A stretch of DNA of 64,000 nucleotides from Elusimicrobia bacterium HGW-Elusimicrobia-1. Its GTDB lineage: Bacteria > Elusimicrobiota > Endomicrobiia > PHAN01. Where the stretch lies: positions 90,807 to 154,806 of the forward strand of contig PHAN01000002.1 in NCBI GenBank assembly GCA_002841695.1, in the 5' to 3' direction. Positions 7,636 through 58,074 of the stretch are shown here, one piece after another. Position numbers and translations under genes: made by a program. Below the pieces are notes generated by a model. It did no database searches. It had not been told where the DNA came from and saw only the letters and a list, made by a program, of their open reading frames with translations. Every line of letters begins with the position of its first letter. The stretch's first letter is position 1.

Positions 7636-7720
7636 AAAATCTCCCCTAACCCCTCTTTTTCAAAGAGGGGGAATAAGGGAACAATCCCCCTTTATTAAAG
7701 GGGGATAAAGGGGGATTTTT
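7636..7720. repeat. P1 palindromic element (AAATCCCCCT...CCCCCTTTnAAAGGGGG...AGGGGGATTT)
   Basis: Terminal inverted repeat aaaatctcccct / agggggatttt enclosing two internal hairpins; same family at 39948, 40383, 50775, 58173. Confidence 0.7.
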
Positions 7721-8906: not shown

Positions 8907-9080
8907 CTTGTCCCCGTAGGCAAAAGGACTTGTCCCCGTAGGCAAAAGGACTTGTCTCCGTAGGCAAAAGGACTTGTCTCCGTAGGCAAAAGGGCTTGTC
9001 CCCGTAGGCAAAAGGGCTTGTCCCCGTAGGCAAAAGGACTTGTCTCCGTAGACAAAAGGGCTTGTCCCCGTAGACAAAAA
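8907..9080. repeat. Tandem repeat, 8 copies of a 22-bp unit (cttgtccccgtaggcaaaagga), ending at the RAYT start codon
   Basis: Eight head-to-tail units with few substitutions, no spacers; first unit overlaps REP-like gtagtgtaggggcttgtcccc. Confidence 0.85.
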
Positions 9081-9538
9081 TGGAACCACCAAAAAAAATC
9101 CGGCTGGAAAAAGAACTATATTCACAACCCGGAAGAATATATTTTGTTACTGTTAATACAAATTTTAAAAAAGGTTTTTTTATAGAGGACAACTTTAATC
9201 GCGAAATTATACAGTGTTTATTGACGGAGAGAAATAACAGATATAGTATTTTCGTATATTGTTTGATGCCTGACCATATTCATTTTTTAATTTCAACAAA
9301 TGCTGAAAATTATTCAATTACTGATTTTGTGAATAGATTTAAAGGATTGACAACAAGAATTGGTTGGAAATACGGTGTTGAAAAAGTTCTATGGCAAAGA
9401 AGATTTTACGATCATATATTAAGAAAGCAAGAAGATGCTAAAAAAATTGCGGAGTATATAGTTAGCAATCCTGTAAGAAAAGGTTTGGTTAAAAATTGGA
9501 AAGAATATCCATATTGTGGGTATATAGATGAATTTTAA
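9080..9538 (+). CDS. REP-associated tyrosine transposase (IS200/IS605 TnpA-like, HUH Y1 family)
   Basis: 152 aa; HUH motif in CLMPDHIHFLIS; conserved C-terminal tyrosine region AEYIVSNPVRKGLV; codon usage AT-rich relative to neighbours. Confidence 0.8.
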   Translation: MEPPKKIRLEKELYSQPGRIYFVTVNTNFKKGFFIEDNFNREIIQCLLTERNNRYSIFVYCLMPDHIHFLISTNAENYSITDFVNRFKGLTTRIGWKYGVEKVLWQRRFYDHILRKQEDAKKIAEYIVSNPVRKGLVKNWKEYPYCGYIDEF

Positions 9539-12215
9539 ATTACGCCCGTGTAGTGTAGGGATTTATGCCCGTAACAAATTTGCGTATTTACGCCCACAAG
9601 GGGCTACATTGCATACGTATTTACGCCCGCAAGGGGCTACACTACTGTTATTATTTATTTGCAATTTGCTTTATGCTCTTGAAATCGGAACTCCTGCGGG
9701 TGAGACGGGCGGCTTTGCGACGCAGCAGAAACATTTTTACGGCGACTATCTTTCGTCGGGCTCGCCTTCGGACTCCGTTTGGAGTTCGTCGGCGGCGATG
9801 ACACGCGAGGCGCTCGCCGACGGCACGACGATATACTTCGCGGACATTCCGGTAACGGCGGGCAACACCTTTTACTACTATTTTAAAACTCAATCGTCGG
9901 GCGAGCAAAAAACGCCGGTATACAGAACTATCTACGTCAGCAGTTCGAATCCCGGCGAAATTATCGTCGACGGAACGGCGTATCCGGCGGCGGGTCTCGT
10001 TGCGGCGGCTACGGTCTGGCACAACTTCTCGGACGCTCCGCCGCCTCCGGCCAATCTCACTTCTTTCTGGTCAGCCGCCAACGACTTCGTATCTCTTGAA
10101 TGGGACAACCCGCTTTTCGACGGAACCGCTGTTTTCGATCTTACGGGCGGAGGCGGTTATGAGATATGGCGCTCAAGCGTATCGTTTTCCGACGGTATGG
10201 CCGTGATATCTTCCGTCACGGCGATTTTAAGCCGCATGAGTTTTCCTGATTCGTCCGTCGAGGCGGGCGCGACTTATTATTACCGCGTCCGCGCCTACGA
10301 CGCGTATCTTCCGCCAATGCTTTCGTCTCCCGCGCAAACTTCGCCCGCATCGAAAAGAAATTACGTCACGGTTGCCCTCGAGGTCGACGTATTCGCGCTA
10401 TCGGGAGTAACCGGGGTTTCCGTTATCGGAGATTTCACCTCGCCGCCGTTTTACAAAGGCCGTCTGAGTATGGATTACGCCGGCGGCGGCAAATGGCGGC
10501 TCGAACACGCCGACGCTTCGCTTTACTCCGGAGCGCTCATCAAATACAAATATCTCGTCAACGGCGAACTTTATGAACCCGATCTGCCGCCTGCGCTCGG
10601 AGGGCCGTACAGAAATGTCGCGATAAAGGATGAGGGTTCGCGCAGAATGACTATTAAAGACGTCTGGTCGGTCTGGACTCCGACGGGAACGCCGTCGAAC
10701 CTGCCGCGGTTTATGACGGCTTTTTCCGCCGAGCCGTCCGCCGGCGCCGTCAAAATCACATGGGACTGCGACCCCTTTTCGACGGGCACTCTTCTGGGTT
10801 ACGCACTTGAGCGCTCGTCGTTCGCCGCCGGCGGTTATTCCGTAATATCTTCGCCGGATATCCTGGGCCCCGCGACATTCTACTACTCGGACGTCCTCGC
10901 CGACGGCTCGACGGCTTTCTACAGGATCGCCGCCGTATCCTCGTCGGGACAATGGTCGGAGTTCTCCGATGCCGTAAAGGCCAATCCTCCGTCCGTCGGG
11001 GAATCTCTGCCGCGATACAATCCCGCCGCCCAAGAGGTTTTCGCGGCGGGCGATTTTATTTGCGATATCGGTAATCTGACGGGTGAAGTCATACTTGCGT
11101 GGAATGCCGCGTCTCATGACGCGGCCTACGGCGCGGCGAGCGCATACATTGTCAAATACGCGACATTCCCGATAATCGGCGCCGATTCTTTTCATCGCGC
11201 AAAGACCGCCGGCGCGGCGCGCGGTTTGCCGTTGGGCGCGACGGGGCGTCTGACGACTTTGAACCTCGGCGGGGACTGCCCGGGTTTTTACTTTGCGGTC
11301 TGCGCGGTCTACGGCTCGTGGCACGTCGTGGGATTTTCAACTTCCGTCGTGGCGGTAGCCCCCAAGGCCTTCGACGCCAAGGATGGCGGCCTCGTCGTCA
11401 AAACGTTGCGTTTCGCGGGATCCTCGCCGGAGGCGCCGAGCGTGGCGGCGATGGAGTTTCCGCCGGGTGCGCTTCAACAGGGCGAATATCTCGGAGTCAT
11501 AAAAAATCTCGGGGAATTACGGCTCGACGGATCGGTCGCGGCCAAGATAGACGCGGCCAATTCACTCGCCTCGCGTGATGCCAGATTCGGCTATGTCGCG
11601 GATAACGAGAACCTTGCGTCGTCGAGCGTTTTCGCTTTCGATCTTTACGATTCGGCGAAAAACGATTACTTTAATCCCGTCGCCGGCAGAAGAGCGCGCA
11701 AAGACATAGTCGTCTCGCTGTCTTACGCAGGGCTGTCCATTGTGCCGGAGGAGTTGAAAGTCGCGCGCCTCAACGAAAAAAACGATTTCTGGCGGATACT
11801 GAAAGATATCAAACCCGATATAGACCGCGACGCCAAGCTCATAAAGTTCAAAACTAAGGAACTCTCGGTCTACGCACTCTTTCGCGCGCCGGCTCCCGCC
11901 GCCGATCTTTCGAACGTAGCGGTTTATCCGAACCCCTTCAAGCCGCACGACGGCTTACGCGAAACGGGCGACTATTCGACGGGAATCAGATTCACCAACC
12001 TCACACGGAACGCGGATATCAGGATTTATAATATAGCCGGCGAATTGGTCAGATACAAAGGGCTTGAAGCCGACGAGATCGGAGAGTGCCGCTGGGACGC
12101 CATGAACGACGACGGTGAACGCGTCGCAAGCGGCGTTTACATTTTCATTGCGAAAGATGAAAGCGTCAAGGTCGGCAAAAACCATTTCACAGGAAAAGTG
12201 GGAATTGTAAGATAA
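9528..12215 (+). CDS. Large FN3-containing surface protein with C-terminal FlgD-Ig/T9SS-like sorting domain (start codon uncertain; N-terminus encoded by REP sequence)
   Basis: 895-aa ORF; FN3 signature ATYYYRVRAYD; C-terminus AVYPNPFKP...IRIYNIAGELVRY...WDAMNDDGERVASGVYIFIAKD...GKVGIVR. Confidence 0.7.
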   Translation: MNFKLRPCSVGIYARNKFAYLRPQGATLHTYLRPQGATLLLLFICNLLYALEIGTPAGETGGFATQQKHFYGDYLSSGSPSDSVWSSSAAMTREALADGTTIYFADIPVTAGNTFYYYFKTQSSGEQKTPVYRTIYVSSSNPGEIIVDGTAYPAAGLVAAATVWHNFSDAPPPPANLTSFWSAANDFVSLEWDNPLFDGTAVFDLTGGGGYEIWRSSVSFSDGMAVISSVTAILSRMSFPDSSVEAGATYYYRVRAYDAYLPPMLSSPAQTSPASKRNYVTVALEVDVFALSGVTGVSVIGDFTSPPFYKGRLSMDYAGGGKWRLEHADASLYSGALIKYKYLVNGELYEPDLPPALGGPYRNVAIKDEGSRRMTIKDVWSVWTPTGTPSNLPRFMTAFSAEPSAGAVKITWDCDPFSTGTLLGYALERSSFAAGGYSVISSPDILGPATFYYSDVLADGSTAFYRIAAVSSSGQWSEFSDAVKANPPSVGESLPRYNPAAQEVFAAGDFICDIGNLTGEVILAWNAASHDAAYGAASAYIVKYATFPIIGADSFHRAKTAGAARGLPLGATGRLTTLNLGGDCPGFYFAVCAVYGSWHVVGFSTSVVAVAPKAFDAKDGGLVVKTLRFAGSSPEAPSVAAMEFPPGALQQGEYLGVIKNLGELRLDGSVAAKIDAANSLASRDARFGYVADNENLASSSVFAFDLYDSAKNDYFNPVAGRRARKDIVVSLSYAGLSIVPEELKVARLNEKNDFWRILKDIKPDIDRDAKLIKFKTKELSVYALFRAPAPAADLSNVAVYPNPFKPHDGLRETGDYSTGIRFTNLTRNADIRIYNIAGELVRYKGLEADEIGECRWDAMNDDGERVASGVYIFIAKDESVKVGKNHFTGKVGIVR

Positions 12216-12257
12216 AGTGGTCAGTGGATAGTGGTTAGTAAATAAAACGGATAATAT

Positions 12258-13250
12258 ATGAGAAAATTGTGTCTTTCGACTAGTGTTTCGACGGCAACTC
12301 GCGGACGAGGACGGCCCCTGCGACGGATTGCCCTTGTCCTTGCCTTTACTATCCACTATACACTGACCACTAACCACTCTCTACACGCCGCCGGCACGAC
12401 ATCCGCGACTTTTCTTAAACTCGGTGTCGGGGCGAGACCGGTGGGGATGGCCTCGGCGTTCGCAGGCGTGGCCGACGACGTCAACTCCGTCGCATGGAAC
12501 CCTGCGGGGCTCGCCTCAGTCGACGCGAAAGAATTTTCGTTTATGCATCTTGAACATTTTCAGGACGTGCGCTACGATTCGCTGTGCTATGCTCATCCTA
12601 TGAAAAAAACGGTCGTCGCATTCGGCTTTGGCTATCTGTATACCGACGAGATAACAAGGACTTTCATAGACGACGATGTTTATGCGGGTTTTCGCGCGCA
12701 GGGAGATTACCGGCTCCAGGATAGGACGTTTTTTGTTGCGGCGGCAAGACGAATCTCCGATGATAAGGCCGTCGGAGCGCTCGTCAGGTGGCTTTCGGAG
12801 AGGATAGAAGATAATGAAGCGACGGGGCTCGCCGCCGACGTCGGATATCTTCATCTCGTGACGGACCGTCTCGCGTTCGGTTTGTCCGTCCAGAATATCG
12901 GCGGGACGATAAGATTCATCGCGGCCGACGAAATGCTGCCGCTGACTTTTCGCGCGGGCTTCGGATATGACGTTGTCGCCGGAAAACTCAAACTCGCGCT
13001 CGACTTCGTCAAGCCCGTCGACTATCAACTTTCGATCAATCTCGGCGCCGAGTACAGGGCGTTTGACGCGCTCGCCGTCAGAGGCGGATGGAGCTTCAAA
13101 GATTTGTTCTACGACGACCGGCTTAACGGAACATCCGGCGCGGCTCTGGGGATGGGGTTTTCTTTTCACAATTATTCTCTTGACTACGCTTTCGCGCCTT
13201 ATGGAGAGCTCGGTTATTCTCACAGAATATCGTTCGGGGGAAAGTTTTGA
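12258..13250 (+). CDS. Beta-barrel outer-membrane protein, PorV/PorQ- or PorP/SprF-like
   Basis: N-terminal motif LKLGVGARPVGMASAFAGVADDVNSVAWNPAGLA; alternating beta-strand-like pattern; C-terminal ...ISFGGKF (terminal Phe). Confidence 0.6.
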   Translation: MRKLCLSTSVSTATRGRGRPLRRIALVLAFTIHYTLTTNHSLHAAGTTSATFLKLGVGARPVGMASAFAGVADDVNSVAWNPAGLASVDAKEFSFMHLEHFQDVRYDSLCYAHPMKKTVVAFGFGYLYTDEITRTFIDDDVYAGFRAQGDYRLQDRTFFVAAARRISDDKAVGALVRWLSERIEDNEATGLAADVGYLHLVTDRLAFGLSVQNIGGTIRFIAADEMLPLTFRAGFGYDVVAGKLKLALDFVKPVDYQLSINLGAEYRAFDALAVRGGWSFKDLFYDDRLNGTSGAALGMGFSFHNYSLDYAFAPYGELGYSHRISFGGKF

Positions 13251-13254
13251 AAAA

Positions 13255-13425
13255 GCAGGGTTTAGAAAGACAGGGTTTAGGGCATAGGGTCTAGGGTTTA
13301 GTAAAATGAATAAAAAACAGAGTATAAAAAAGACAGGGTTTAGGGTTCAGGGTTTAGGGGTTAGGTTTTTTTTCTTTTTTCTTTTTTCTATTTTCTATCC
13401 CCTAACCCATAGACCCTATACCCTG
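13255..13425. repeat. Leader palindrome P3 built from GGGTTTAGGG-type units; contains start codon and signal-peptide coding region of 13306..15414
   Basis: cagggtttagggcatagggtctagggtttag ... cagggtttagggttcagggtttaggggttagg ... ctatcccctaacccatagaccctataccctg; near-identical copy at 22629-22772. Confidence 0.75.
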
Positions 13426-15414
13426 CTTTATGCTACAACCCCCCACACAATTGCTATCGACGGCAACATCGCCGAATGGCGCAAAGACGAGTTGATTTAC
13501 GACGACTCCTGGAACGACTCTCCGTGGGGCGCGCAAAATGAAATCCACCGATTGTACGCCACATGGGACGACTCGGCTTTGTACCTTGGAGTATCGGGCG
13601 TTCAGAAGGACGGCAACAACCTTATCGTCTACATAGACACATCCCCGCTCGACGGAATCGCGGACGCCTCCCTTCTGAAAGATCCGGGTAATCCCTCGGG
13701 GATGTGGTGGTGGCGCAGAGGGAATAAATTCGCCCACGGCTTCAGACCGGATTTTCAGTGGCATCTTTACGAGATGAAACTGGATCCCGCGGATGGCCAC
13801 GGATTTTTCCGGCTCTATCCCGACGATACGACCGCGAATCTCAACGGCTCCGTCGCGCAGAAGGCCTCCGGCGGGGGCGCGGGCAATATCGGTTACGCCG
13901 AGATAAAGATACCGTGGCAGATTTTATTCGGCGCGGCATCTTTCCCGTCGGGAGAGGAAATCAGAATCGCGGCGGCTGTCACGGGCGGTATGGATACGCG
14001 AGGCACGCTCGATTCTTCCGACGATCTTTTCGGCTCGGCGCGCGACACGATACCCGACCAAAAGGCGGTTTTCCCCGAAGTATGGCACGATTCTTCTACG
14101 ATAGACACGTGGCTCGCTCTGAATCTTTCGGGAACCTCCGGCGACCGGTCGCCGGTGCCGCGCTCGCTCGTCTTAACTCCGCAAAGTCCGTTCGATGCGA
14201 AGGTTTCCTGGCAGACGCGCGGGATCATCGAAAGCAATCTCGACGAATACCGGCTGTATTACGCCCAAGACGGAACCGACGGGCGTTACGTCCGCGCGGC
14301 ATCGACGGAGACGTCCGCCGCGATAGAAGGCCTCGTCGCGGGTGCGACCTATCATTTTTTTCTGAGGGCGGTATATTCGGGCGAGGGGGAAGGCGGTTGT
14401 TCTGAAACGTTGGTTTCGCGGCTGCTGCGCCCTTCGCTCGCGCATTCGGCGCAAAGTGTATTTTGCTTTCCCGGTAAAATCCTCGATATTGAAGTCGAAT
14501 CCTCCGCCGCGCCGTCGGCGGTTGCGTTGCGCTATTTGTTTGACTCTGAAAATGTCTGGCGCACGTCGGCGATGAACATCGCCGGATCCAAGGCCTCATA
14601 CGCTCTTTGGCTGCCTTCAATCCCGGCCACACTGAAATATTATTTCGAAATAACGGACTCGGCCGGCACTCATCTTCTGCCCGCCTCGGCGCCGGCCTTC
14701 TCGTATGCCGTAAAGATAGAGTCGCGCGGTTCGGCGTACGCGCCGCTCTCGACGCAAACTTCGACGCTCGATTTCGGGGGAGGAGTCCTGATGGAAATAC
14801 CGCCGGACGGGCTCTCGACCGCGACGACCATCTATTTCGAATATTCATCGTCGAACGGCGATCTTTACGGCGACGGCGGACTCAGAGCGCTCGCGTATTA
14901 CGATTTTTACGCGCTTGATAGAAGCGGCAGCCGCGTCGGAGTGGTTTTCGAAAAGCCCGCGTTGATTAAGCTCAGATATTTCGACGACGACATCGCCGGC
15001 GTATCCGAATATGAGCTTTCCGTCGGGCGCATAGCCGGCGCAAGAAACGTGGCGCTCAAAGGAACGGTTTCCGCGGCCGAAAATAAAATATCTTTCGAGA
15101 CGTCCCATTTTTCCCGCTTTGCGATTTTTTCAGGAGAGACGGCCGTCTCGCCGATTGCCGGGCCGCTTAAAAAAGTCGTGCGGCCCACATTTAATCCGTC
15201 TCTGGGCGAAGTCGTGGAGTTCGACTGCGAGACGCCGTCGAAGATAGAAATATTCGATATGCGCGGTCGCCTAATCCGGACTTTTGACGGGAACTTCTGG
15301 GACGGCCGCGATTCGCTCGGCTCCAAAACTGCGCCCGGCGTATATCTTTATCGTCTCAGTACGCCCGAGCCGGGAAGAAAGAATATTTACGGCAGTTGTG
15401 TGGTAATCAGGTAA
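13306..15414 (+). CDS. Secreted surface protein with N-terminal CBM9/DOMON-like domain and C-terminal FlgD-Ig/T9SS-like domain
   Basis: 702 aa; N-terminal TIAIDGNIAEW...LYATWDDSALYLGVSGV; C-terminus RPTFNPSLGEVVEF...IEIFDMRGRLIRTF...WDGRDSLGSKTAPGVYLYRL...CVVIR. Confidence 0.7.
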   Translation: MNKKQSIKKTGFRVQGLGVRFFFFFLFSIFYPLTHRPYTLLYATTPHTIAIDGNIAEWRKDELIYDDSWNDSPWGAQNEIHRLYATWDDSALYLGVSGVQKDGNNLIVYIDTSPLDGIADASLLKDPGNPSGMWWWRRGNKFAHGFRPDFQWHLYEMKLDPADGHGFFRLYPDDTTANLNGSVAQKASGGGAGNIGYAEIKIPWQILFGAASFPSGEEIRIAAAVTGGMDTRGTLDSSDDLFGSARDTIPDQKAVFPEVWHDSSTIDTWLALNLSGTSGDRSPVPRSLVLTPQSPFDAKVSWQTRGIIESNLDEYRLYYAQDGTDGRYVRAASTETSAAIEGLVAGATYHFFLRAVYSGEGEGGCSETLVSRLLRPSLAHSAQSVFCFPGKILDIEVESSAAPSAVALRYLFDSENVWRTSAMNIAGSKASYALWLPSIPATLKYYFEITDSAGTHLLPASAPAFSYAVKIESRGSAYAPLSTQTSTLDFGGGVLMEIPPDGLSTATTIYFEYSSSNGDLYGDGGLRALAYYDFYALDRSGSRVGVVFEKPALIKLRYFDDDIAGVSEYELSVGRIAGARNVALKGTVSAAENKISFETSHFSRFAIFSGETAVSPIAGPLKKVVRPTFNPSLGEVVEFDCETPSKIEIFDMRGRLIRTFDGNFWDGRDSLGSKTAPGVYLYRLSTPEPGRKNIYGSCVVIR

Positions 15415-15437
15415 CCGTGTGTTAATCGGATAACAAA

Positions 15438-15620
15438 TTGAGTCAATTGAAAAACCCTTATCACGTCATTCCCGCGAAAGCGGGAATCCAGAGTTTCAGT
15501 CGTAGTATGGATTCGTCCCCGAATGTCTTTATCGGGGATAACAACATTCGGGAATGACCCCCGATAAAAACGTTCGAGGGCAGGCATACGGGAAAAAGGT
15601 TGGTTTTTCAATTGACTCAA
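15438..15620. mobile_element. MITE-like element with terminal inverted repeats and nested internal palindrome
   Basis: TIRs ttgagtcaattgaaaaacc / ggtttttcaattgactcaa; internal gtcattcccgcgaaagcgggaatcc ... cgggaatgac. Confidence 0.7.
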
Positions 15621-15660
15621 ATTAAAAGGTGAAAATATTTACGGTGGCTGGCTCGATAAA

Positions 15661-16623
15661 ATGATGATGACGAAACATTCGTTTGCGCGTCTTCGCGCGG
15701 CGGCATTGGCGGCAGCGGTGCTATGTGTTTGCGCCGCGGCGTCGAGATCCTACGAGCCGGGCGCAAACGCGGCTATTTTATCGTCGGCGGGAGGCGGCGC
15801 CGCCGCGATGTCGGCGCATTATGTCTGGCTCAATCCCGCCGCCGCGGCCTTCGCCGCCGACGGATTTGCGTCGAGCGTCGGCTATAAAAAGTTTTTCGCC
15901 GGGGTTGACACTTCCGCCGCAGAAGGAGTGCCGGGATATATCAGGCCGGACATCTCCGAGACGACGCTCGAAGTTCTCTGTCCGTTCGGCGACGGTCTGA
16001 CGGCCGGCGCGGGATTCTATTCGCTCGGGCTCAAGGATTATTTTTCGCGTCAGAACCTGGTTCTTTACGCCGCATATCCGGTCGGGGGCTCGACCTATTC
16101 CTCGCAGGGCGATCATCTGTCGTCGGATGACCGTATCGTCATAGGCGCCGCGCTCAAACAGGTTTCGATTTCTTATGTCGCGGACGAATATACCTCCGAT
16201 TTTTTCTCCGTGTACTCAGGGCGTAAAAGCGCGCTGACTCTGGACGTCGGGGCGATATATACCGCCGGTCGTCTGCGATTGGGAGTCGTCGGGCGCAATC
16301 TCATTCCAGCGAATCTCGGCATCTATGAAAACGCGCCTGAGGATGTCTCCTTCCTCATCGGCGCGGCGGCGGTCTTCCGGCCATACGAGTTGCGGCTCGA
16401 CTTCGCCGCATCAGGATACAAGGGTTTCACCGAAGCGATACCTTCGGTCGAGATAAAAGCCGGCGCGGCGGATTTTCGTCTGGGCGTCAATTCGTCGCAG
16501 GCGGCCGCCGGCGCGACCCTGCGTTCCGGCGATATTGCCCTGACGGCGGCTTTCATATATCCCTACGTGATATCCGGCGGCTTCGGCGATTTCGCGGCCG
16601 AGTTTTCTTACAGGATAAAATAA
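15661..16623 (+). CDS. Outer-membrane beta-barrel-like protein (divergent member of the same partner family)
   Basis: Signal peptide MMMTKHSFARLRAAALAAAVLCVCAAA; motif MSAHYVWLNPAAAAFAADG; stop overlaps start of next gene. Confidence 0.5.
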   Translation: MMMTKHSFARLRAAALAAAVLCVCAAASRSYEPGANAAILSSAGGGAAAMSAHYVWLNPAAAAFAADGFASSVGYKKFFAGVDTSAAEGVPGYIRPDISETTLEVLCPFGDGLTAGAGFYSLGLKDYFSRQNLVLYAAYPVGGSTYSSQGDHLSSDDRIVIGAALKQVSISYVADEYTSDFFSVYSGRKSALTLDVGAIYTAGRLRLGVVGRNLIPANLGIYENAPEDVSFLIGAAAVFRPYELRLDFAASGYKGFTEAIPSVEIKAGAADFRLGVNSSQAAAGATLRSGDIALTAAFIYPYVISGGFGDFAAEFSYRIK

Positions 16624-18014
16624 TGACAATTTCGGCGAAGGACAAAACCCCGCACACCTTTCTCTTCGGCGCGGAACTCGCCGCCCAGACGGCGGTGTTG
16701 CTGTGGATCGCTCTGGCGCTCGCAGTAGTTTTCGTTTCTCTAAGGGCGCCGCAGCACATAATTCTTGTGTATCCGGCTTCCGTCCTCGTAATTTTTTTGA
16801 GTCACATTTTTTCGGGAACGTCCGTCGCGGCGTCATTGCTGGCTTTTTTTACCATAATCTCTCTCGTCGGCGCGATAGCCGCTTCATCGGTGACGAACAG
16901 GGCGACTTTCATCTCGTCTCTGGCGCTCTCATGGGCGGTGTTTTTCGCGGCGCTGAAATACGCGGCTATAATGGATTCCCGTCGGGCGGCATTCGCGGAA
17001 AAATCGGAAGAGTTTGAGATAGCTCTTAACGAGACGCGGCGGTTTGCGGCGGAGCATTCAGAGACCGCCGCTGCCTGTGAACGCAGGATAGAAAACTATT
17101 CTAAAATGGCCGCGTTTCTGCGCGCGGTGTGCGGCCTTCTTGACGCGGAGGATTTTTTTGCGGCATTGAGCGGCAGGTTCGCCGGCTATCTCGGCGAAGG
17201 CGCGATGCTTTCCTTCCGCTCCGCTCCGCCGGATTTTGTGGCGGCCGCCGGCGGAAGCGCGGGCGCGTTCCATGCGACCGGAGCATTTTTCGTCTCCGCC
17301 GATTCGAGGCGCATAGCCGCGACTTTTCTCGACGAAGTCCCCGGGCGCGAATGGGTTTTGGTCGAAAAAACTTCCCGGGCTCTGACCGACGACGATAAGC
17401 GTTTTCTTTCTTTGGCTCTTGATTTTTCAAGGACGGCGGCGGCAAATGCGATGCTTTACGAAAAAACTCAGAAACTATCCATACTCGATGAACTCACGGG
17501 AGCGTATCTGAGGGGTTACCTTATGGAGCGCTTTGATGAGGAATTTACGCTCGCGCGCGGACACGGCGCTCCCCTTTCGGCGCTTATGTTCGACATCGAT
17601 CATTTCAAGAGCATTAACGACGAACACGGACACACCGTCGGAGATGAAGTGCTAAAAGCCATTGCTCATTCGCTCAGGAGGCGACTGCGCGAGACCGACA
17701 TCCTCGGAAGATACGGGGGGGAAGAGTTTGTCGCCGTAATGCCGCATACGGACTGCGCCGCCGCCCTGGCCGTCGCCCAAGAAGTCCGATCGATGATAGA
17801 ACACGAAAGATTCTTCGCCGGACCGGCGTCCGCGGCTCTCCGTGTGACGGTAAGCGTGGGCGCGGCTTCGATGGAATCGTCCGACGAATCCTGGCAACAA
17901 ATTCTCTCTCGCGCCGACAAGATGCTTTATGCGGCCAAAATATCCGGTCGAAATCGCGTGATGCCGTCGCCGGATAGCGGATCGGGAGCAAAACCCGGCC
18001 CTGATAAAAATTAA
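16623..18014 (+). CDS. Membrane-anchored GGDEF diguanylate cyclase
   Basis: N-terminal hydrophobic segments; GGDEF domain LTGAYLRGYL...FDIDHFKSINDEHGHTVGDEVL...RYGGEEFVAV. Confidence 0.85.
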   Translation: MTISAKDKTPHTFLFGAELAAQTAVLLWIALALAVVFVSLRAPQHIILVYPASVLVIFLSHIFSGTSVAASLLAFFTIISLVGAIAASSVTNRATFISSLALSWAVFFAALKYAAIMDSRRAAFAEKSEEFEIALNETRRFAAEHSETAAACERRIENYSKMAAFLRAVCGLLDAEDFFAALSGRFAGYLGEGAMLSFRSAPPDFVAAAGGSAGAFHATGAFFVSADSRRIAATFLDEVPGREWVLVEKTSRALTDDDKRFLSLALDFSRTAAANAMLYEKTQKLSILDELTGAYLRGYLMERFDEEFTLARGHGAPLSALMFDIDHFKSINDEHGHTVGDEVLKAIAHSLRRRLRETDILGRYGGEEFVAVMPHTDCAAALAVAQEVRSMIEHERFFAGPASAALRVTVSVGAASMESSDESWQQILSRADKMLYAAKISGRNRVMPSPDSGSGAKPGPDKN

Positions 18015-18018
18015 GGAT

Positions 18019-19296: not shown

Positions 19297-19325
19297 GCGG
19301 CAAGAATGACTTAACGGAGGAAATT

Positions 19326-20267
19326 ATGCTGGAAAAACTCGTTTCAAGGATGACCCCGAAATGGCGCGACACGACGGTGGCTCTCGTTTTTCTTTCGCCG
19401 TTTCTGGCCGTTTACGCCGTTTTTCTCGTCTATCCGATTTTTTACTCGATGTATCTGAGTTTCAGGACGGTGAGCGTCGATACCGACATGTTCAACGTTT
19501 TTTCAGATATGAGATTTACCGGCCTGAAAAACTATATTGAACTTGCGAAAGATTATCACTTCTGGTGGTCGCTCGCCGTAACTTTTTACTACGCTATCCT
19601 CTATATACCGCTTCTGATTTTCTCCTCGCTCGTTCTGGCAGTGCTTCTTAACAATCATCTCAAAGGGCACTCGTTTTTCCGCAGCGCCTATTTCATGCCG
19701 AATGTCCTGGATATGTTTGTCGTCGGAACCATATGGATGTTCCTCTACGCCCCGCAGGGAGGCGTCATCTCGCAGATTATGAACGCTCTCGGCATAGATT
19801 TTTTTTCGCGCGAGGGAATACTCGGCAGCCCCCGCACCGCAATGCTCGGAGTCGTCGTGGCTTTGGTTCTCAAAAACACCGGTTTCGGAATGATTCTTTT
19901 TCTTGCGGCGATACAAAACATATCACGCTCGGTCTACGAAGCCGCCGACATCGACGGAGCCAGTAACTGGCAGAAGTTCACGAAAATCACGATACCTCTC
20001 GTGAGACCCATAATCCTTTTTATGGTTGTGACGGGTATGATAGGAGCGCTCAACTCCTTCACCGAAATTTACGCGATGACTTCCGGCAAGCCCAACGTCG
20101 TCGTTTTCGGTAAGACGATGGAGGCGACGCGCGTGGCGGGATATTATCTTTTCCGTCAGTGGGACAGGATGAATTACGGTTACGCCGCCGCCATGAGCTA
20201 CGCCCTTCTTTTTATTACGCTGGCGGTCTCTTACGTCAACGCGAAGATTCTTAAGTCGTCGCATTAG
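19326..20267 (+). CDS. ABC sugar transporter permease (MalF/UgpA-like)
   Basis: SD ACGGAGG; multi-TM; EAA-loop-type motif YEAADIDGASNWQKFTKITIPLVRP. Confidence 0.85.
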   Translation: MLEKLVSRMTPKWRDTTVALVFLSPFLAVYAVFLVYPIFYSMYLSFRTVSVDTDMFNVFSDMRFTGLKNYIELAKDYHFWWSLAVTFYYAILYIPLLIFSSLVLAVLLNNHLKGHSFFRSAYFMPNVLDMFVVGTIWMFLYAPQGGVISQIMNALGIDFFSREGILGSPRTAMLGVVVALVLKNTGFGMILFLAAIQNISRSVYEAADIDGASNWQKFTKITIPLVRPIILFMVVTGMIGALNSFTEIYAMTSGKPNVVVFGKTMEATRVAGYYLFRQWDRMNYGYAAAMSYALLFITLAVSYVNAKILKSSH

Positions 20268-20274
20268 AAAAAGG

Positions 20275-20332: not shown

Positions 20333-20352
20333 TATTTCAACGGAGGAAAAAA

Positions 20353-21253: not shown

Positions 21254-21277
21254 AAATCGTAAAAGACCGGAGGGAAA

Positions 21278-22628: not shown

Positions 22629-22772
22629 TTAGGGTCTAGGGTTTAGTAAAATGAATAAAAATATAGAAAAGACAGGGTTTAGAAAGGCAGGGTTTAGGGT
22701 TCAGGGTTTAGGGGTTAGGATTTTTGTTTTAATTTTTTTCTATACCCTAACCCCTAAACCCCATGCCCTGCT
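22629..22772. repeat. Leader palindrome P3 (second copy), overlapping start of 22651..23760
   Basis: gttagggtctagggtttagtaaaATG...cagggtttagggttcagggtttaggggttagg...ctataccctaacccctaaaccccatgccctg. Confidence 0.75.
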
Positions 22773-23760
22773 TTTCTCCGCGCCGCGTCACACCATTACC
22801 GTCGACGGCGATTTATCCGAGTGGGCGTCCGACGAAACAAGAGTCGCCGATTCCGCCGACTCCGTATGGGACCCGGGCGCCGGCAAAAACGAGATAAAAA
22901 ATCTCCGCGTCACGTGGGATGCCGAGGCGCTTTACGTGGGCGTCGAGGGAATGGCGACGGACAAAGGTATCCTGTTATATCTCGACAGCGGGCGCGGAGC
23001 GGGTTATTCCGATTTGCGCGAAATAAAAACGTGGAACCGCCGCGTGAGCTTCGAAAACTTTGCGCCCGATTTCTTCTACGGCGCGTGGGACGGCTCCGAC
23101 GGCAATTTTTACAGGTTGAGTTCTTCGTGGAGCGCCGAGAACGTAAGTTCAAAGTGTTCGCTGAAAAACTCTAAAACTTCGGCCGCGGCGGGGTGGGAGA
23201 TGAAGATTCCTTTCGACCTTCTTTATTCGCGCGGGAACGCCGTCGATACCGGGGCGCGCATAAAGATATTCGCCTCCCTTGCCACCGGCGACATAGGTTC
23301 GGCCGCGTCCGGAGATTACGGCTATCTCGGCGGTGACTGCGCGCCGGACAACGAATTGACCGGACTCGGCGACGCCCTGATATCAAATTACGCGCAAGTC
23401 GTCGTCGATTCCGACGGCGACGGCCTGCCCGACGACGCTTTTGCGCGCGCTGCGCTTTCCTTCAGAGAGGTGTCTCTTTCGGAGGTTAAGTTTGCGCCCG
23501 CGCTTCACTCCTTGACGATTTTGCGCGTCGAGGTCACAAAAGAATCTTCGGTCTCGGCGGAAATCTACGGCCTCGACGGAAAAAAAATCAGGACGCTTTC
23601 GGCACAGACCTCCGCCCAAAATTTTGTCCTGAGTTTTTCGTGGGACGGCCGGGACGATTCGGGCGCCGATGTCGCCGGCGGCGTTTACATAATCAATCTG
23701 CGCGCGTCTTCGCTCGACGAAAGCGCGCGTCTTAATAAGGCCGTCGTTGTCATAAGGTGA
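22651..23760 (+). CDS. Secreted protein with CBM9/DOMON-like N-terminal domain and C-terminal FlgD-Ig/T9SS-like domain
   Basis: N-terminal HTITVDGDLSEW...LRVTWDAEALYVGVEG (homologous to 13306 and 40565 N-termini); C-terminus SAEIYGLDGKKIRTL...WDGRDDSGADVAGGVYIINL...VVVIR. Confidence 0.7.
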   Translation: MNKNIEKTGFRKAGFRVQGLGVRIFVLIFFYTLTPKPHALLFSAPRHTITVDGDLSEWASDETRVADSADSVWDPGAGKNEIKNLRVTWDAEALYVGVEGMATDKGILLYLDSGRGAGYSDLREIKTWNRRVSFENFAPDFFYGAWDGSDGNFYRLSSSWSAENVSSKCSLKNSKTSAAAGWEMKIPFDLLYSRGNAVDTGARIKIFASLATGDIGSAASGDYGYLGGDCAPDNELTGLGDALISNYAQVVVDSDGDGLPDDAFARAALSFREVSLSEVKFAPALHSLTILRVEVTKESSVSAEIYGLDGKKIRTLSAQTSAQNFVLSFSWDGRDDSGADVAGGVYIINLRASSLDESARLNKAVVVIR

Positions 23761-23784
23761 TTAAAGGCAGAGGACAGAAACCAG

Positions 23785-23870
23785 AAGGCAGAGATTAAGA
23801 GATTGGGAAATTAGGGAACTACTTTTTAGCGCAATAATCCTCTAATCTCACAATCACCTAATCTCATCTT
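23785..23870. repeat. Hairpin with 7-nt periodic arms (gattaag/agattgg family)
   Basis: gagattaagagattgggaaattaggg ... cctctaatctcacaatcacctaatctc; related arm at 28797-28825. Confidence 0.6.
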
Positions 23871-23876
23871 TTCCGC

Positions 23877-47803: not shown

Positions 47804-47912
47804 AGGGCAGTGGTTAGTGGCGAGTGGTTAGTGGATAGAAAGGGCAGTGGTTAGTTTTTTGTTTTTACTATCCACTATTCACTAACCACTCGCCACTATA
47901 CACTAGCCACTT
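47804..47912. repeat. P2 hairpin (agtggttagtggatag arms around T-rich loop), terminator-like, downstream of giant gene
   Basis: gggcagtggttagtggcgagtggttagtggatagaaagggcagtggttagttttttgtttttactatccactattcactaaccactcgccactata. Confidence 0.7.
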
Positions 47913-47932: not shown

Positions 47933-48883
47933 ATGAAAAAATTCTCATCGACAGGGTCATTGTTTATTCTCTTGTTTATCGTTTTTACTATCCACTACCC
48001 ACTAACCACTAACCACTGTCTTTACGCCGCCGGTCTCTCGTCTCCCAACGCCTCGATGTATCTGGGTAACCTTAAAATCGGCCAGACGTATTCACTCAGA
48101 CAACTGCTGGGCTACCCATTCAAAGCCACCTACAAAGGACGCTCAATGGCCGACCTGTCCATAAGCGTGATCGCGCTGTCCACCGCGACATCCGACGGAT
48201 ACGAACCCATCCCGTCCAACGACTGGATAGAAATCGAACGCTCGCATTTCTCTCTCGATCCGGGCCAGACCGCCGAAACCGACATCCTCATAAAAATCCC
48301 CGACGACACCGCGCATCTTGACAAAAAATATATCGTCATAATACAGCCACAGTCGGGCGCGCCGCGCGCCAGCGGAGCGGGCATTGTTTTCGGCACGGCG
48401 CTCAGGTGCCAGTTGCGCCTCGACATAGCCGCGCTTCCTCCCACGCCGGACGAAATCCGGCAGTTACGGCGCCTTCGGCACGGACAGTCGGTCGGTGTGG
48501 TTGTGTCTCCGGAAAGAATTTTCGTAAACGAAATCGAGGCGGGAAAAAAGATAGACGTCAAAAAAACTTTCGGCGATGTTATAAAAATAGTGAACTCGTC
48601 GGATTTCGACGTAGAGGCCGTCATAGAGTCCGCCGACCCCGCCAAGTTCGGGATGTTCGCCCCGTCGGGTTATGAAACCGCCCCCGATCACAAATGGCTT
48701 GTGCCCGCAAAAAGAAAAATCAAGATTCAGAAAAACCGCATAGCCGAGGCGCCGGTTACCATAAACATTCCTTCCGGCCCGGAACACGAGGGGAAAAGCT
48801 ACTATTTCGCCATTGCCGTAACCGTCAAATCGCCCATAAGAGAAGTCAATCATCTGGTCAGATTCTTTGTGGATATGAAGTAG
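47933..48883 (+). CDS. Secreted protein A1 of duplicated two-gene cassette (unknown function)
   Basis: ATG 47933 with GGAGGA 5 nt upstream (track start 47921 is TTG); leader SLFILLFIVFTIHYPLTTNHCLYAA; paralogous to 51140..52039 (NLKIG, GYEPxP, HLxKKY, ISAPSGY shared). Confidence 0.7.
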   Translation: MKKFSSTGSLFILLFIVFTIHYPLTTNHCLYAAGLSSPNASMYLGNLKIGQTYSLRQLLGYPFKATYKGRSMADLSISVIALSTATSDGYEPIPSNDWIEIERSHFSLDPGQTAETDILIKIPDDTAHLDKKYIVIIQPQSGAPRASGAGIVFGTALRCQLRLDIAALPPTPDEIRQLRRLRHGQSVGVVVSPERIFVNEIEAGKKIDVKKTFGDVIKIVNSSDFDVEAVIESADPAKFGMFAPSGYETAPDHKWLVPAKRKIKIQKNRIAEAPVTINIPSGPEHEGKSYYFAIAVTVKSPIREVNHLVRFFVDMK

Positions 48884-48925: not shown

Positions 48926-48948
48926 AAATGAAAAAGGGGGGGAATAGT

Positions 48949-49326
48949 ATGATAGGAGTTAGGAGTTATAAAGATTTAATAATCTGGCGAAAAAGTATGG
49001 AACTTGTAAAAATTGTGTACAAAGCGACCAGTAGTTTCCCGCAAAAAGAATTATTCGGATTGACAAATCAGATGAGAAGGGCAGCCGTATCGATACCTTC
49101 AAATATAGCGGAAGGGCAGGCCAGAAACCATACGAAAGAATTTGTGCAGTTTCTGTATCAGGCGTTGGGCTCCCTGGCGGAACTTGATACACAGGCAATA
49201 ATAGCCAAGGAACTGGGTTATCTAAAAGCAGTGGATAGTGGTGAGTGGATAGAAAGACAAACTGCCGAACTTCAAAAGATGACACACGGCCTACTCAAAA
49301 AACTAACCGCTATAGACAGTGGATAG
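48949..49326 (+). CDS. Four-helix-bundle protein (family formerly called 23S rRNA intervening-sequence protein)
   Basis: SYKDLIIWRKSMELVKIVYK...FGLTNQMRRAAVSIPSNIAEGQAR...ELDTQAIIAKELGYL; AT-rich; start at ATG 48949 after GGGGGG SD preferred over 48928. Confidence 0.8.
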   Translation: MIGVRSYKDLIIWRKSMELVKIVYKATSSFPQKELFGLTNQMRRAAVSIPSNIAEGQARNHTKEFVQFLYQALGSLAELDTQAIIAKELGYLKAVDSGEWIERQTAELQKMTHGLLKKLTAIDSG

Positions 49327-56436: not shown

Positions 56437-58074
56437 ATGAATACACTTATTAAAATCATCAAAAAATTTCCGCCGCCGTCGTCATTGTTTATTCTCTTGT
56501 TTATCGTTTTTACTATTCACTATTCACTATCCACTATTCACCCTCTTTACGCCGCATTCGAGGATATTTCCGTCGGCGGACGTCCCGCGGCTTTTTCCGG
56601 CGCGTATACAGCGGTCGAAGGCGACGCGTATTCCATCTACTACAATCCCGCGGCGCTTGCGGGTATGGCAAGGGCCGAGTTCGGCGCGCAATATTCCAAA
56701 CTTCATACGGGGCTTACGGACGGTTCGGAACTCTCCAACGCTTTTTTCGGCGTGGCGCAGCCGCTTAAATTCGGCTCGGCCGATTACGGCACAATCGGCG
56801 CGGGATGGATAAGATTCGACCTTGCGGAACTTTATCAGGAAAATACTATAATCTTGTCCTGGGCGCGTGACATTGTAAAGAACAAACTTTCCTTCGGATT
56901 CGGCGCCAAAATGCTCTCTATTACCTACGGCGAAAACGACTACACCAAAAACGCCTTCGACAACGAGGGCAACACGACCGGCGCGGCGGACCCGCTTTTC
57001 AACTATGGCTATATCAAATCCGCCGCCGACTTCGACGCCGGAATAAGATACGCTTTCGCCAAAAATTACGCCGTGGCCGCCGTCGCGCAGAATCTGGCGG
57101 GCGCAAATATATCGCTCGTCAACGACCCCAATGTCGCGCTGCCGCGTCGTTACCGTTTCGGCCTTGCTCACACCGGCAAGGCCTACGCGCTTTCGGCCGA
57201 TGTCGCGGGCGCTTCGGACTCTTCGGTAGTGCGCGGAATGGTCGGCGTCGAAAAAAGTTTCGACTTCGGTGGCGCCCTGAGGGCCGGGCTGGGAATGGGC
57301 ACCGACGGATGGGCCAATATCGCCGGCGGTTTCGGATTCAAAGCCGACGCCCTCAGCTTCGATTACGGCCTCGCATGGCCGTTGTCGGGCATAAAGAACA
57401 CTTCAGGCAGTCACAGGGTCTCGGTGAATTTCAAATTCGGGCCCGTTATGCGCCACCCCGAATCCGACTCGGAAACGCAGGTGCGCCTGGCGCAGGAAAT
57501 TACCGCCCGCAAAGAGTACGAGCAGAAATACAGGGTGTCCGAGATAGAACTCGCCCGCGCTAGAGAAGAGATAAGACAGCTCAAAAATCAGATAGAGGAA
57601 TTGCTCAAGCGTCCGTCGGCTCCCATACCGGCGCCAAGAGAAATCGCGTCGCCCAAGCCGACGGTTACGGAGACGCCCGCGGCCGTCAAACCCGGCGTAA
57701 CGCCGGCCGCGCCCGCTATGCCCACCGATATCGACGCTTTGAGAGCCGCTTATGCCAAAGAATTCAACCAGTATCAGCGCGACGCTTCCAAAATGGATAT
57801 TAAGCAGCGCATCGCGGCGGTTGACGTCATAGTCGCGCGTTATCAGGGCAAGATAAAGATAACCGAAGCCGTCGACGAACAGATGATACTCAGGAATGAA
57901 TTCGCCGCGCAGACCAAGTTCTATAACGACGCGCTTACTTACTACAAACGTCTCGTACGGCAGGGTATATCCGTCGAGGAGCGCAAGGACATACTCAATC
58001 GCATGATAACCAAGTACCAGGTGCTCGGCGTCGATGTAACTGTCGCCAAAGAGGAGCTTAAGACGGTAAAATAA
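56437..58074 (+). CDS. Beta-barrel OMP (PorV/PorQ- or PorP/SprF-like) with C-terminal coiled-coil/Pro-rich extension
   Basis: ATG 56437 after aaaggag (track start 56269 lies in repeat); leader SLFILLFIVFTIHYSLSTIHPLYAA; motif GRPAAFSGAYTAVEGDAYSIYYNPAALAG; C-terminal EIELARAREEIRQLKNQIEELLKRPSAPIPAP. Confidence 0.6.
   Translation: MNTLIKIIKKFPPPSSLFILLFIVFTIHYSLSTIHPLYAAFEDISVGGRPAAFSGAYTAVEGDAYSIYYNPAALAGMARAEFGAQYSKLHTGLTDGSELSNAFFGVAQPLKFGSADYGTIGAGWIRFDLAELYQENTIILSWARDIVKNKLSFGFGAKMLSITYGENDYTKNAFDNEGNTTGAADPLFNYGYIKSAADFDAGIRYAFAKNYAVAAVAQNLAGANISLVNDPNVALPRRYRFGLAHTGKAYALSADVAGASDSSVVRGMVGVEKSFDFGGALRAGLGMGTDGWANIAGGFGFKADALSFDYGLAWPLSGIKNTSGSHRVSVNFKFGPVMRHPESDSETQVRLAQEITARKEYEQKYRVSEIELARAREEIRQLKNQIEELLKRPSAPIPAPREIASPKPTVTETPAAVKPGVTPAAPAMPTDIDALRAAYAKEFNQYQRDASKMDIKQRIAAVDVIVARYQGKIKITEAVDEQMILRNEFAAQTKFYNDALTYYKRLVRQGISVEERKDILNRMITKYQVLGVDVTVAKEELKTVK

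Follow-up and report, generated by a model that had tools for sequence, protein, structure and literature searches.

Anatomy of the two GGGTTTA leaders

The stretch analysed here, called the window below, comprises 64,000 nucleotides (nt) of contig PHAN01000002.1 (positions 90,807 to 154,806, forward strand) from Elusimicrobia bacterium HGW-Elusimicrobia-1. It holds two genes whose first codons lie inside palindromic heptamer repeats: one encodes a 702-residue (702-aa) protein in which Pfam recognises an fn3 domain, and the other a 369-aa protein with a FlgD_ig domain, the sort of C-terminal domain found on cargo of the type IX secretion system (T9SS). Their neighbours encode PorV/FadL-like outer-membrane proteins (OMPs) and a sugar ATP-binding cassette (ABC) transporter. 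Both repeat-bearing leaders were found where a reading of the letters alone, made earlier (the sequence-only reading), had located a TTTAGGG-type palindromic leader common to two surface-protein genes, and the repeats, the pairing of the arms and the predicted folds bear that description out.

Copy 1 (13255-13429) and copy 2 (22629-22775), both on the + strand, share one layout, in which G-rich heptamers of the AGGGTTT type are followed by a T-rich spacer and then by a reverse-complementary, C-rich array. Their parts, given with the open reading frames (ORFs) into which they extend, are the following:

13255..13301, + strand: copy 1, upstream purine-rich array (G-arm A) of AGGGTTT-type units
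13285..13316, + strand: copy 1, start block TAGGGTCTAGGGTTTAGTAAAATGAATAAAAA, with the ATG (13306-13308) in an A-rich island
13306..13434, + strand: copy 1, predicted signal peptide of 43 codons, opening the ORF of the 702-aa fn3 protein (13306..15414)
13333..13367, + strand: copy 1, in-ORF G-arm B of five heptamers, with a four-G-tract motif at 13336-13360, translated TGFRVQGLGVR
13366..13398, + strand: copy 1, T-rich spacer, which includes (TTTTTTC) x4.1 at 95% match, translated FFFFFLFSIFY
13399..13429, + strand: copy 1, C-rich arm CCCTAACCCATAGACCCTATACCCTG, translated PLTHRPYTLL
22629..22661, + strand: copy 2, short upstream array and identical start block, ATG at 22651
22651..22782, + strand: copy 2, predicted signal peptide of 44 codons, opening the ORF of the 369-aa FlgD_ig protein (22651..23760)
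22668..22721, + strand: copy 2, in-ORF purine-rich arm, made of two 15-nt AAAGNCAGGGTTTAG units and five heptamers, with a four-G-tract motif at 22690-22714
22722..22739, + strand: copy 2, T-rich spacer, translated IFVLIFF
22740..22775, + strand: copy 2, C-rich arm CTATACCCTAACCCCTAAACCCCATGCCCTG, closing the hairpin that spans 22683-22775

The array of copy 1 begins 5 nt past the stop codon of an OMP gene (13248-13250) and that of copy 2 begins 2 nt past the stop codon of a sugar-binding-protein gene (22625-22627). G-arm A of copy 1 carries its own four-G-tract motif (13273-13296), and one unit of G-arm B has CAG in place of what would be an in-frame TAG. Tandem Repeats Finder reports a period of 7 with 4.3-5.0 copies at 13272-13301, 13335-13369 and 22689-22723. 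The window contains 13 matches to the motif AGGGTTTAGGG with one mismatch at most, where 0.67 would be expected, and all of them except one fall within the two elements.

Two stretches of copy 1 are complementary to its C-rich arm, 13342-13365 pairing with 13401-13424 at 20 of 24 positions and 13279-13301 with 13402-13424 at 20 of 23, while in copy 2 the matches amount to 19 of 22 (22690-22711 with 22740-22761) and 16 of 16 (22704-22719 with 22746-22761). We estimate that chance would produce a perfect inverted repeat of 16 nt within 160 nt about 0.002 times per 64 kb. Past the purine arm comes an A-rich module, TAGTAAAAA(TG)AAAAA, to which the T-rich spacer is reverse-complementary, so that the palindrome runs on through the A-rich and T-rich parts. 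As RNA, copy 1 is predicted to form a hairpin of -51.4 kcal/mol (z = -2.4 against dinucleotide shuffles) and copy 2 one of -49.5 kcal/mol (z = -3.2); overall, the predicted hairpins fall at about -46 to -56 kcal/mol. Four-G-tract motifs also occur on the minus strand, at 13399-13423 and 22745-22768; the formation of quadruplexes is a prediction from the motif.

The 702-aa and 369-aa proteins are paralogues, with 36% identity over 235 residues. Their leaders are 77% identical as DNA and include perfect blocks of 32 and 41 nt, the former being the start block, which a repeat family search of the window aligned at 100% identity between 13285-13316 and 22630-22661. Past the leaders, the coding sequence (next 150-600 nt) is 53-59% identical, as compared with 49.5% for random pairs of window segments. 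Since the leaders are far more alike than the coding sequence that follows, they must have been acquired or homogenised recently. Their likeness thus goes beyond plain common descent of 5' ends, and the palindromic symmetry is real, so that the possibility of two simply orthologous gene starts with no symmetry beyond chance, which the sequence-only reading had named as its own refutation, did not materialise.

The explanation that we favour, and that we regard as probable on the basis of the sequences compared here, is that the element is a heptamer inverted repeat of a known class which has spread over the junctions between genes of secreted proteins, where it would serve at once as an RNA hairpin and as signal-peptide codons.

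Reading frame and predicted export signal

The leader of copy 1 is translated as MNKKQSIKKTGFRVQGLGVRFFFFFLFSIFYPLTHRPYTLLYA/TTPH... and that of copy 2 as MNKNIEKTGFRKAGFRVQGLGVRIFVLIFFYTLTPKPHALLFSA/PRH..., where the slash marks the putative cleavage site. No in-frame ATG, GTG or TTG occurs between 13306 or 22651 and the respective mature domain, and the JGI and NCBI annotations agree on both ATGs (PKN02097.1, 702 aa; PKN02104.1, 369 aa). It had been proposed that the start codon is placed differently in the two copies, with most of the first arm upstream of the ATG in one and inside the ORF in the other. Pairwise alignment contradicts this: the copies are colinear, the ATG stands at an equal aligned position inside the 32-nt start block that they share without a difference, and in both the ORF includes the arm complementary to the C-rich one (translated TGFRVQGLGVR). 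Repeat units have just been added on either side, amounting to about 30 nt of additional array 5' of the ATG in copy 1 and to one additional unit 3' of it in copy 2. Within the ORFs, the copies differ in length at two places, by 9 nt each as counted on the alignment, and the frame is therefore preserved.

A Sec-type signal peptide, cleaved by signal peptidase I, consists of a basic n-region, a hydrophobic core of 7-15 residues and a c-region with small residues at positions -1 and -3. The n-regions of the two leaders have net charges of +6 (copy 1) and +5 (copy 2), and translation confirmed that the T-rich loop encodes the hydrophobic cores FFFFFLFSIFY and IFVLIFFY, as had been read from the sequence. 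The leaders end in LYA/T (copy 1) and in FSA/P or LFS/A (copy 2), after a long c-region containing R, K and H. Considered together, all five repeat leaders have an n-region net charge of +5 to +8, a hydrophobic window with a Kyte-Doolittle value above 2.2, and Ala or Ser at the end. Both proteins bear T9SS-type or FlgD_ig C-terminal domains and would therefore require export, which the leader peptide is predicted to direct through the Sec pathway. The orthologues P0001, L174, L176 and L178 align from one common mature N-terminus (..TPHTI.IDG..).

In terms of the genetic code, the basic n-region comes from the purine arm, the hydrophobic core from the U-rich spacer and the Pro/Thr-rich end from the C-rich arm. 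The whole hairpin appears to be translated, and this is the unusual feature of these leaders. A search with the leader peptide alone against 5.8 billion proteins returned one candidate and no match, short low-complexity queries being poorly suited to the tool; the peptide appears not to be a shared protein module.

An open frame across a repeat could also arise by accident, with the annotated start wrong and the hairpin untranslated. Openness alone is weak evidence of translation, as was seen in a metagenome scan for CAGGGTTTAGGG and CCCTAACCC separated by a gap of 15-45 nt, which found at least 120 GGGTTTA-type hairpin loci in many environments. Many of the matches listed are clearly hairpins of bacteria, placed between a stop codon and the start that follows it, and the 109 distinct hairpins comprise 61 closed in all three sense frames and 48 open in at least one. 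Moreover, C-rich arrays elsewhere often sit just before a true ATG and are absorbed by extension of the ORF (as in L141, L143 and L145, from the genome scan described below), and NCBI places later starts than JGI for two OMP genes, an example of how gene callers disagree on start codons at such repeat junctions. For the two leaders, however, there is the lack of any alternative in-frame start noted above; an out-of-frame ATG at 13430 opens just a short ORF; and, without the leader, two exported proteins would be left with no signal peptide, although every orthologue possesses one, with a common end point. Only one of the 109 listed hairpins resembles the ORF geometry of the window, and that one has no start codon. 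We therefore regard mis-annotation as highly improbable.

A unit length that is not a multiple of three, in arrays at the 5' end of the coding sequence for surface or secreted proteins, would also suit a phase-variation switch, in which gain or loss of a 7-nt unit within the signal-peptide codons shifts the frame and turns a surface protein off or on. The precedent is opa of Neisseria, where CTCTT repeats lie in the leader-peptide codons (PMC3960869). Like the leaders described here, opa carries pyrimidine-rich short repeats of a unit not divisible by 3 that encode the hydrophobic part of the signal peptide, and its product is an outer-membrane protein; unlike them, its repeats are direct only, long and perfect, with proven high-frequency slippage, whereas those of the window are short, imperfect and inverted. 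Slippage is possible in the (TTTTTTC) x4.1 tract of copy 1, and any frameshift runs, as read from the sequence, into a stop codon in the C-arm. The contigs of three relatives (L173, L177 and L179) end inside arrays, which fits length heterogeneity or a mere assembly break at a repeat. On the other hand, the units of the G-arm are imperfect, the spacer of copy 2 has no perfect array, and an array of four to five units is rather short to slip efficiently. The identical proteins were recovered at full length from 5-8 independent contigs, the 90% clusters contained no variant in leader length, and most arrays of this class are intergenic, beside genes of all kinds (PMC4692102). A switch of this kind seems to us quite unlikely.

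A separate observation concerns P0011 and P0012 from another assembly (22,340-bp JGI contig), in which the 702-aa gene is split into ORFs of 282 and 419 aa by a frameshift near residue 266 while the leader is unchanged; a real variant and an assembly error are both possible.

Turnover of the repeats among syntenic relatives

Loci syntenic with that of the 702-aa gene were found by homology search with the neighbouring OMP, and seven lineages, including the window, were compared. The six relatives, with the identity of their OMP to that of the window, are as follows:

L174 (OMP about 63%): no repeats; the genes overlap; ordinary 27-aa signal peptide MKKYILTITAYIGFSFLMLLSPALLFS/TTPHTIVIDG
L173, sister strain (OMP 89%): GAGATTA units at the place of the window's GGGTTTA; the contig ends in a T-rich array, before any C-rich arm
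L176 (OMP about 60%): CAGAGGA/GCACAAG arrays, then CCTCTCA and CTATTYG arrays
L177 (OMP about 63%): CACGAA-type repeats, which are not heptamer arrays by the array criterion; the contig ends in the repeat
L178 (OMP about 58%): AAGAGAC-type arrays, then CTT/TTC-rich arrays
L179 (OMP about 57%): AGACAGA/AGTCAGA arrays; the contig ends just within a TTACTTC array

A purine array past the upstream stop codon is present at the junction of the 702-aa orthologue in six of the seven lineages, three of these cases being partial, at contig ends. The downstream pyrimidine array is complete in the window, L176, L178 and L177; L179 has its start alone, and L173 the T-rich array alone. The repeat units differ lineage by lineage at this junction. 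In L174, the orthologue of the 369-aa gene likewise has an ordinary signal peptide, MKKNFSFSVGRRLLFFCAAIWVSVESFPALFSA/PYHTISVDG. The repeat leaders are predicted to fold at -0.24 to -0.36 kcal/mol per nt, as compared with -0.076 for L174. Cognate arms pair far better than non-cognate ones in most lineages, with the exception that the purine arm of the L173 OMP pairs slightly better with the C-rich arm of the window, because both arms are rich in runs of G and C.

The comparison of the window with L173 gives the sharpest view of this turnover. Identity is about 90% in the flanking genes (by eye, from alignments), and its collapse is bounded exactly by the upstream stop codon and the cleavage region. 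The GGGTTTA arrays of the window and the GAGATTA arrays of L173 align unit by unit at the shared junction. Mature OMPs that are at least 89% identical bear three unrelated signal peptides. In L176, the two paralogues again have one common leader family, and there are 27 arrays in 21 kb. The locus thus forms a natural comparative series, with an ordinary signal peptide in one lineage, other repeats at the same junction in five others, and near-identical proteins with unrelated leaders in sister strains.

The L176 contig (GCA_041694835.1, JBGFRZ010000077) is noteworthy in its own right. Nearly every exported-protein gene called on it has an array-bearing leader (arrays in the first ~200 nt), the leaders measure 83-92 aa in the two paralogues for which a translation was made, and cytoplasmic and permease genes have arrays upstream only.

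Related heptamer families and the proposed role of the repeats

The inventory of repeats in the window adds at least four further heptamer families of identical layout, in which a purine-rich array lies 0-30 nt past a stop codon and its complement lies downstream, at times in the signal-peptide codons of the next gene. This kind of leader is not private to the two genes; the sequence-only reading had overlooked both the several heptamer-hairpin families of the window and the occurrence of the repeat class across many phyla. The listing of heptamer arrays comprises 14, all of 4-5 units. A looser count by eye gave 13 purine-rich arrays, each at most ~30 nt past a + strand stop codon, and two of them reach into downstream ORFs. 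Arrays lie within five of about 20 signal peptides in the window, with no convincing case in a cytoplasmic protein. The larger family, AGTGGTT/AGTGGAT (complement ACTAACC/ACTATCC), has the same layout as the GGGTTTA leaders; GAGATTA, AAGAAGT, GGTAAAT and TAGGAGAT families sit past other stop codons. The main elements are:

12216..12378, + strand: AGTGGNT-family element at an OMP gene, with its G-arm (12216-12242) directly past the stop codon of the cargo gene
47805..47911, + strand: stand-alone intergenic AGTGG hairpin, -64.6 kcal/mol, z = -10.5
47984..48018, + strand: AGTGG-family C-arm in signal-peptide codons (FTIHYPLTTNH) of ORF 47933..48883
56507-56541, + strand: AGTGG-family C-arm in the same arrangement, ORF 56437..58074, with its G-arm at 56128-56155
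23764..23876, + strand: hairpin of GAGATTA-type heptamers, placed past the stop codon of the 369-aa gene and before the next OMP gene

In the first of these elements, the arms enclose a ribosome-binding site, the ATG (12258) and the codons of the n- and h-regions, and FTIHYTLTTNH of the OMP signal peptide comes from the C-arm (12345-12378). The C-rich arm forms the end of the signal peptide in three OMP genes (FTIHYPLTTNHCLYA, FTIHYTLTTNHSLHA and FTIHYSLSTIHPLYA). The unit of the hairpin at 23764..23876 is the same type that stands in for GGGTTTA in L173. The stand-alone hairpin at 47805..47911 has near-identical copies at 49304-49410 and 52045-52164. Each of the three comes after a stop codon, and they are 85-91% identical over 103 nt (47795-47897, 49304-49406 and 52065-52167).

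This last likeness, the replacement of the entire segment from stop codon to cleavage site between the window and L173, and a gene for a Y1 transposase (IS200-like, of the type associated with repetitive extragenic palindromic (REP) elements, RAYT) at 9080..9538 (Pfam Y1_Tnp, E = 6.6e-11) could suggest a mobile palindromic cassette that a transposase moves and that brings a start codon and a signal peptide with it. Such a cassette might be of REP type or a miniature inverted-repeat transposable element, which has terminal inverted repeats, a target-site duplication and a conserved internal sequence in many copies. However, the copy alignment reveals no target-site duplications, the two GGGTTTA copies have no defined ends, and none of the 179 fetched loci contained a further copy of the start block with its ATG. 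The repeat beside the transposase gene is a tandem one of 22-nt units (8907-9079), not a heptamer array, unlike the association of RAYT with REP, and the unit-by-unit alignment of GGGTTTA with GAGATTA suggests concerted change in place, not independent insertion. Transposition of a cassette is in our judgement very unlikely.

As for the transposase gene itself, the tandem repeat that precedes it consists of eight units of GGACTTGTCCCCGTAGGCAAAA, the head of which (TGTAGTGTAGGGGCTTGTCCCCGT) has a perfect inverted copy at 36523-36546. The position is empty of genes in the syntenic loci L173, L174 and L176, so that the transposase gene looks like a recent insertion.

Heptamer repeats beside stop or start codons occur in cyanobacteria, Xanthomonas, Beggiatoaceae and others, and to our knowledge they have stood for decades without an accepted function. 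The G-rich heptamers of Xanthomonas and Nostoc are related to the short tandemly repeated repetitive (STRR) heptamers of cyanobacteria. Rehm et al. (2015) described those of Xanthomonas (GGGAATC) and Nostoc (GGGGAYT) as preferring four units, lying on the coding strand at most 50 bp past stop codons, and being mostly intergenic beside genes of all kinds; Xanthomonas has 70-75 convergent pairs per genome, and the repeats change fast between relatives and have no known function (PMC4692102). Both leaders of the window resemble them in their tandem 7-nt units at about four per array, in their four or more runs of at least three G, in the G-rich coding-strand array within 50 bp past a stop codon (5 nt and 2 nt) between co-directional ORFs, in the convergent partner array that gives a potential stem-loop, and in the fast change of length and sequence between close relatives. 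They differ in that the known heptamers are under-represented in coding sequence, whereas here the whole inverted repeat, with the inner G-arm, spacer and C-arm, lies inside the ORFs and encodes a predicted signal peptide; in addition, the unit is AGGGTTT, and this genome also harbours several families that have the layout but no G-tracts. The TAACTGA repeats of Beggiatoaceae, cyanobacteria and Bacteroidetes, described by MacGregor (2015), similarly lie between a stop codon and the next start, with stops in all three forward frames and few canonical Shine-Dalgarno sites nearby, and now and then a copy in reverse orientation is translated at the very end of a protein; the repeats are nearly always direct instead of inverted, and no link to signal peptides has been reported for them (PMC4679880).

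The class is widespread. A scan of genomes of species representatives, among which the source metagenome-assembled genome (MAG) was not returned, as it is apparently not a representative, was made with the exact 27-nt pattern of the AGTGG-family C-arm (TTTACTATCCACTANNCACTRWCCACT, (ACTATCC)n) and found 51 loci against about 0.07 expected by chance (our own estimate). They belong to more than 10 phyla, including Cyanobacteria, Acidobacteriota, Planctomycetota, Bacteroidota, Elusimicrobiota, Chloroflexota, candidate-phyla-radiation groups and Desulfobulbaceae, and the recurrence of one and the same heptamer, ACTATCC / GGATAGT, across phyla is an observation of its own. Most apparent in-ORF cases among these loci are the ORF extensions upstream of a true ATG mentioned above. 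Two resemble real signal peptides, namely that of L135 (MKHRLFIGLVILLSTIHYPLSTIHA/EE; Paludibacteraceae MAG) and the lipoprotein signal of L129 (Elusimicrobia UBA5214).

The hairpin of the leaders might be the primarily selected feature, with coding incidental, acting as a regulatory RNA through a stem cut by RNase III or through a switch between G-quadruplex and hairpin. The model is the 5'-untranslated region of hmw1A of Haemophilus influenzae, where (ATCTTTC)n heptamers pair with a G-rich arm and RNase III processes the resulting hairpin, which lies upstream of an adhesin gene (PMC12721329). As in the window, a surface-protein gene there carries a long hairpin at its 5' end, one arm of which is a heptamer array; the hmw1A hairpin is a tested model of how such a structure acts in RNA, whereas the leaders here are known from sequence, and in hmw1A the pyrimidine repeats form the left arm, which is the opposite polarity, and the element lies wholly in the untranslated leader. 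Consistent with an RNA function are the pairing, with up to 24 uninterrupted pairs in a stand-alone AGTGG element and interrupted runs of more than 20 positions in the leaders, the survival of the architecture through complete replacement of the sequence at the same junction, and the concentration of five of the eight four-G-tract motifs of the window in the two leaders. Yet the 3' arm is coding, and cutting both arms would sever the start codon from the ORF. The AGTGG, GAGATTA and AAGAAGT families share the layout without G-tracts, so that a G-quadruplex is not the general principle, and L174 manages without a hairpin. Rfam 15 gave no match at gathering score anywhere in the window. A primarily regulatory hairpin appears rather unlikely to us.

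Termination of transcription was considered as well. An intrinsic terminator has a short GC-rich stem and a loop of 3-8 nt followed by a U-tract. The loops of the two elements measure 17-35 nt and their tails read CUUUAUG and CUUUUCU, and a scan of 12000-24500 for the terminator consensus flagged neither.

Returning to the heptamer inverted repeat with a double use, we propose the following. An array of 4-5 purine- and G-rich units right past the upstream stop codon is followed by an A/T-rich middle and by the complementary pyrimidine-rich array, and in this Elusimicrobia lineage the element would have spread across the junctions between stop and start codons in operons that encode secreted proteins. 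Inside it begins the downstream ORF, which reads through it, and the operon mRNA can form a long stem-loop starting ~25-32 nt past the AUG. Should the hairpin form in the cell, it would most likely be an intercistronic structure, either protecting a 3' end or offering a processing site to a double-strand-specific RNase. This role is suggested by analogy with the hmw1A hairpin (PMC12721329) and with REP sequences after binding-protein genes.

Newbury and colleagues reportedly described, in 1987, the stabilisation of mRNA by the REP between malE and malF. Copy 2 resembles REP elements and bacterial interspersed mosaic elements in being a palindrome directly past a solute-binding-protein gene of an ABC-transporter operon, and it would be a plausible 3'-end protector. 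REP sequences differ in their length of 20-40 nt, their conserved GTAG head, their link to RAYT, their lack of tandem heptamers and their untranslated position.

On the protein side, the codons AAA, AAG, AGA and AGG of the purine arm supply the Lys/Arg-rich n-region, their complements UUU, CUU and UUC the Phe/Leu core, and CCC, ACC and CUA from the complement of the G-arm a Pro/Thr/Leu-rich c-region, so that a palindrome with its purines first, when read in frame, gives the n-h-c order of a signal peptide. Rapid turnover would probably proceed by repeat slippage together with template switching or gene conversion that keeps the arms complementary, and signal peptides would tolerate it because they need just general physicochemical properties.

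Several findings weigh against this interpretation. The fold z-scores are modest, since dinucleotide shuffles retain the G- and C-rich composition. The stretch from the core to the putative cleavage site is atypical, being long (12-14 residues) and holding Arg, Lys and His. Both ATGs have a weak Shine-Dalgarno match before them, AGGG, which at about -13 to -16 is also distant. The leader starts of L176 and L178 are uncertain, with a TTG overlapping the upstream stop codon and, in L176, a later in-frame TTG. Finally, template switching in quasi-palindromes may by itself keep the arms complementary; a mutational process may thus maintain the pairing, and the matching of arms is no proof of selection for RNA structure.

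More tentatively, and with more doubt than confidence, we suggest that purine-first heptamer palindromes in general may be a self-renewing source of start sites and signal peptides. A non-coding hairpin at a junction might be recruited repeatedly as a working export signal and exchanged wholesale between strains, while retaining a selected RNA role such as RNase III processing or protection of a 3' end. If true, this would provide a general route by which targeting sequences are born from simple repeats, and a functional clue to the unexplained heptamers of bacteria. As the repeat is forced to be RNA structure and protein at once, two questions become testable, namely whether the complementarity of the arms is selected or a mutational by-product, and whether a palindromic repeat can supply a functional signal peptide.

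Two candidate explanations had been considered and dropped. Mimicry by the heptamers of the anti-Shine-Dalgarno sequence (the complement of the 16S rRNA 3' end) gave an unconvincing match by eye, and an invertible promoter, considered because the arms flank a 360-nt region at 56128-56541, was abandoned as most spacers measure just 17-36 nt.

Further features of the window were recorded. A gene for T9SS-type cargo followed by one for a PorV/FadL-like OMP occurs at least three times (9528-13250, 22651-24752 and 53078-58074), each pair with a heptamer hairpin at its junction. Downstream of one stand-alone AGTGG hairpin lies a promoter-like TTGACT...TATAAT (49420-49450). A four-helix-bundle gene (48928..49326; 23S_rRNA_IVP / Avd-like) has AGTGG arrays on both sides (48884-49410) and contains one in its 3' end (AVDSGEWIE); a link between such genes and heptamer arrays was discarded after tblastn on the fetched loci gave one distant homologue, 3 kb from its array. 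At 36399-36546, a GGTAAAT/GGTGAAT array past a stop codon, for which no complementary partner was found, is followed by three perfect copies of CTTTATGGGCGTTT in a GTAGTGTAGCCC ... GGGGACAAGCCCCTACACTAC hairpin upstream of an alpha-amylase gene.

Repeat DNA of other kinds also occurs in signal-peptide codons. The 895-aa cargo protein begins with a 38-residue n-region (9528-9680) that arises from the palindromic repeat GTAGTGTAGGG ... GGGGCTACACTAC, with YLRPQGATL twice, which makes it another instance. The signal peptide of the sugar-binding lipoprotein, MKKIRLMRPLGRIAIPRFTRDKFRLLLVSLLFAVFVGGC (21278-21400), contains a palindromic repeat of the GCGAATAGCAAT type, found also at 20300-20340 and 39222-39277, and the protein's cluster-mates at 90% identity or more, P0006 and P0007, have a different, ordinary signal peptide. 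Intergenic palindromes of the CCCCCTTTAAAAAGGGGGA type occur at 7636-7720, 39952-40460, 50774-50850 and 58171-58267, and two further hairpin repeat families were noted, GTCATTCCCGCGAAAGCGGGAATCC at 15450-15501 / 32556-32607 and GTCATTCTGAGCGAAGCGAAGAATC at 56182-56273 / 58865-58955.

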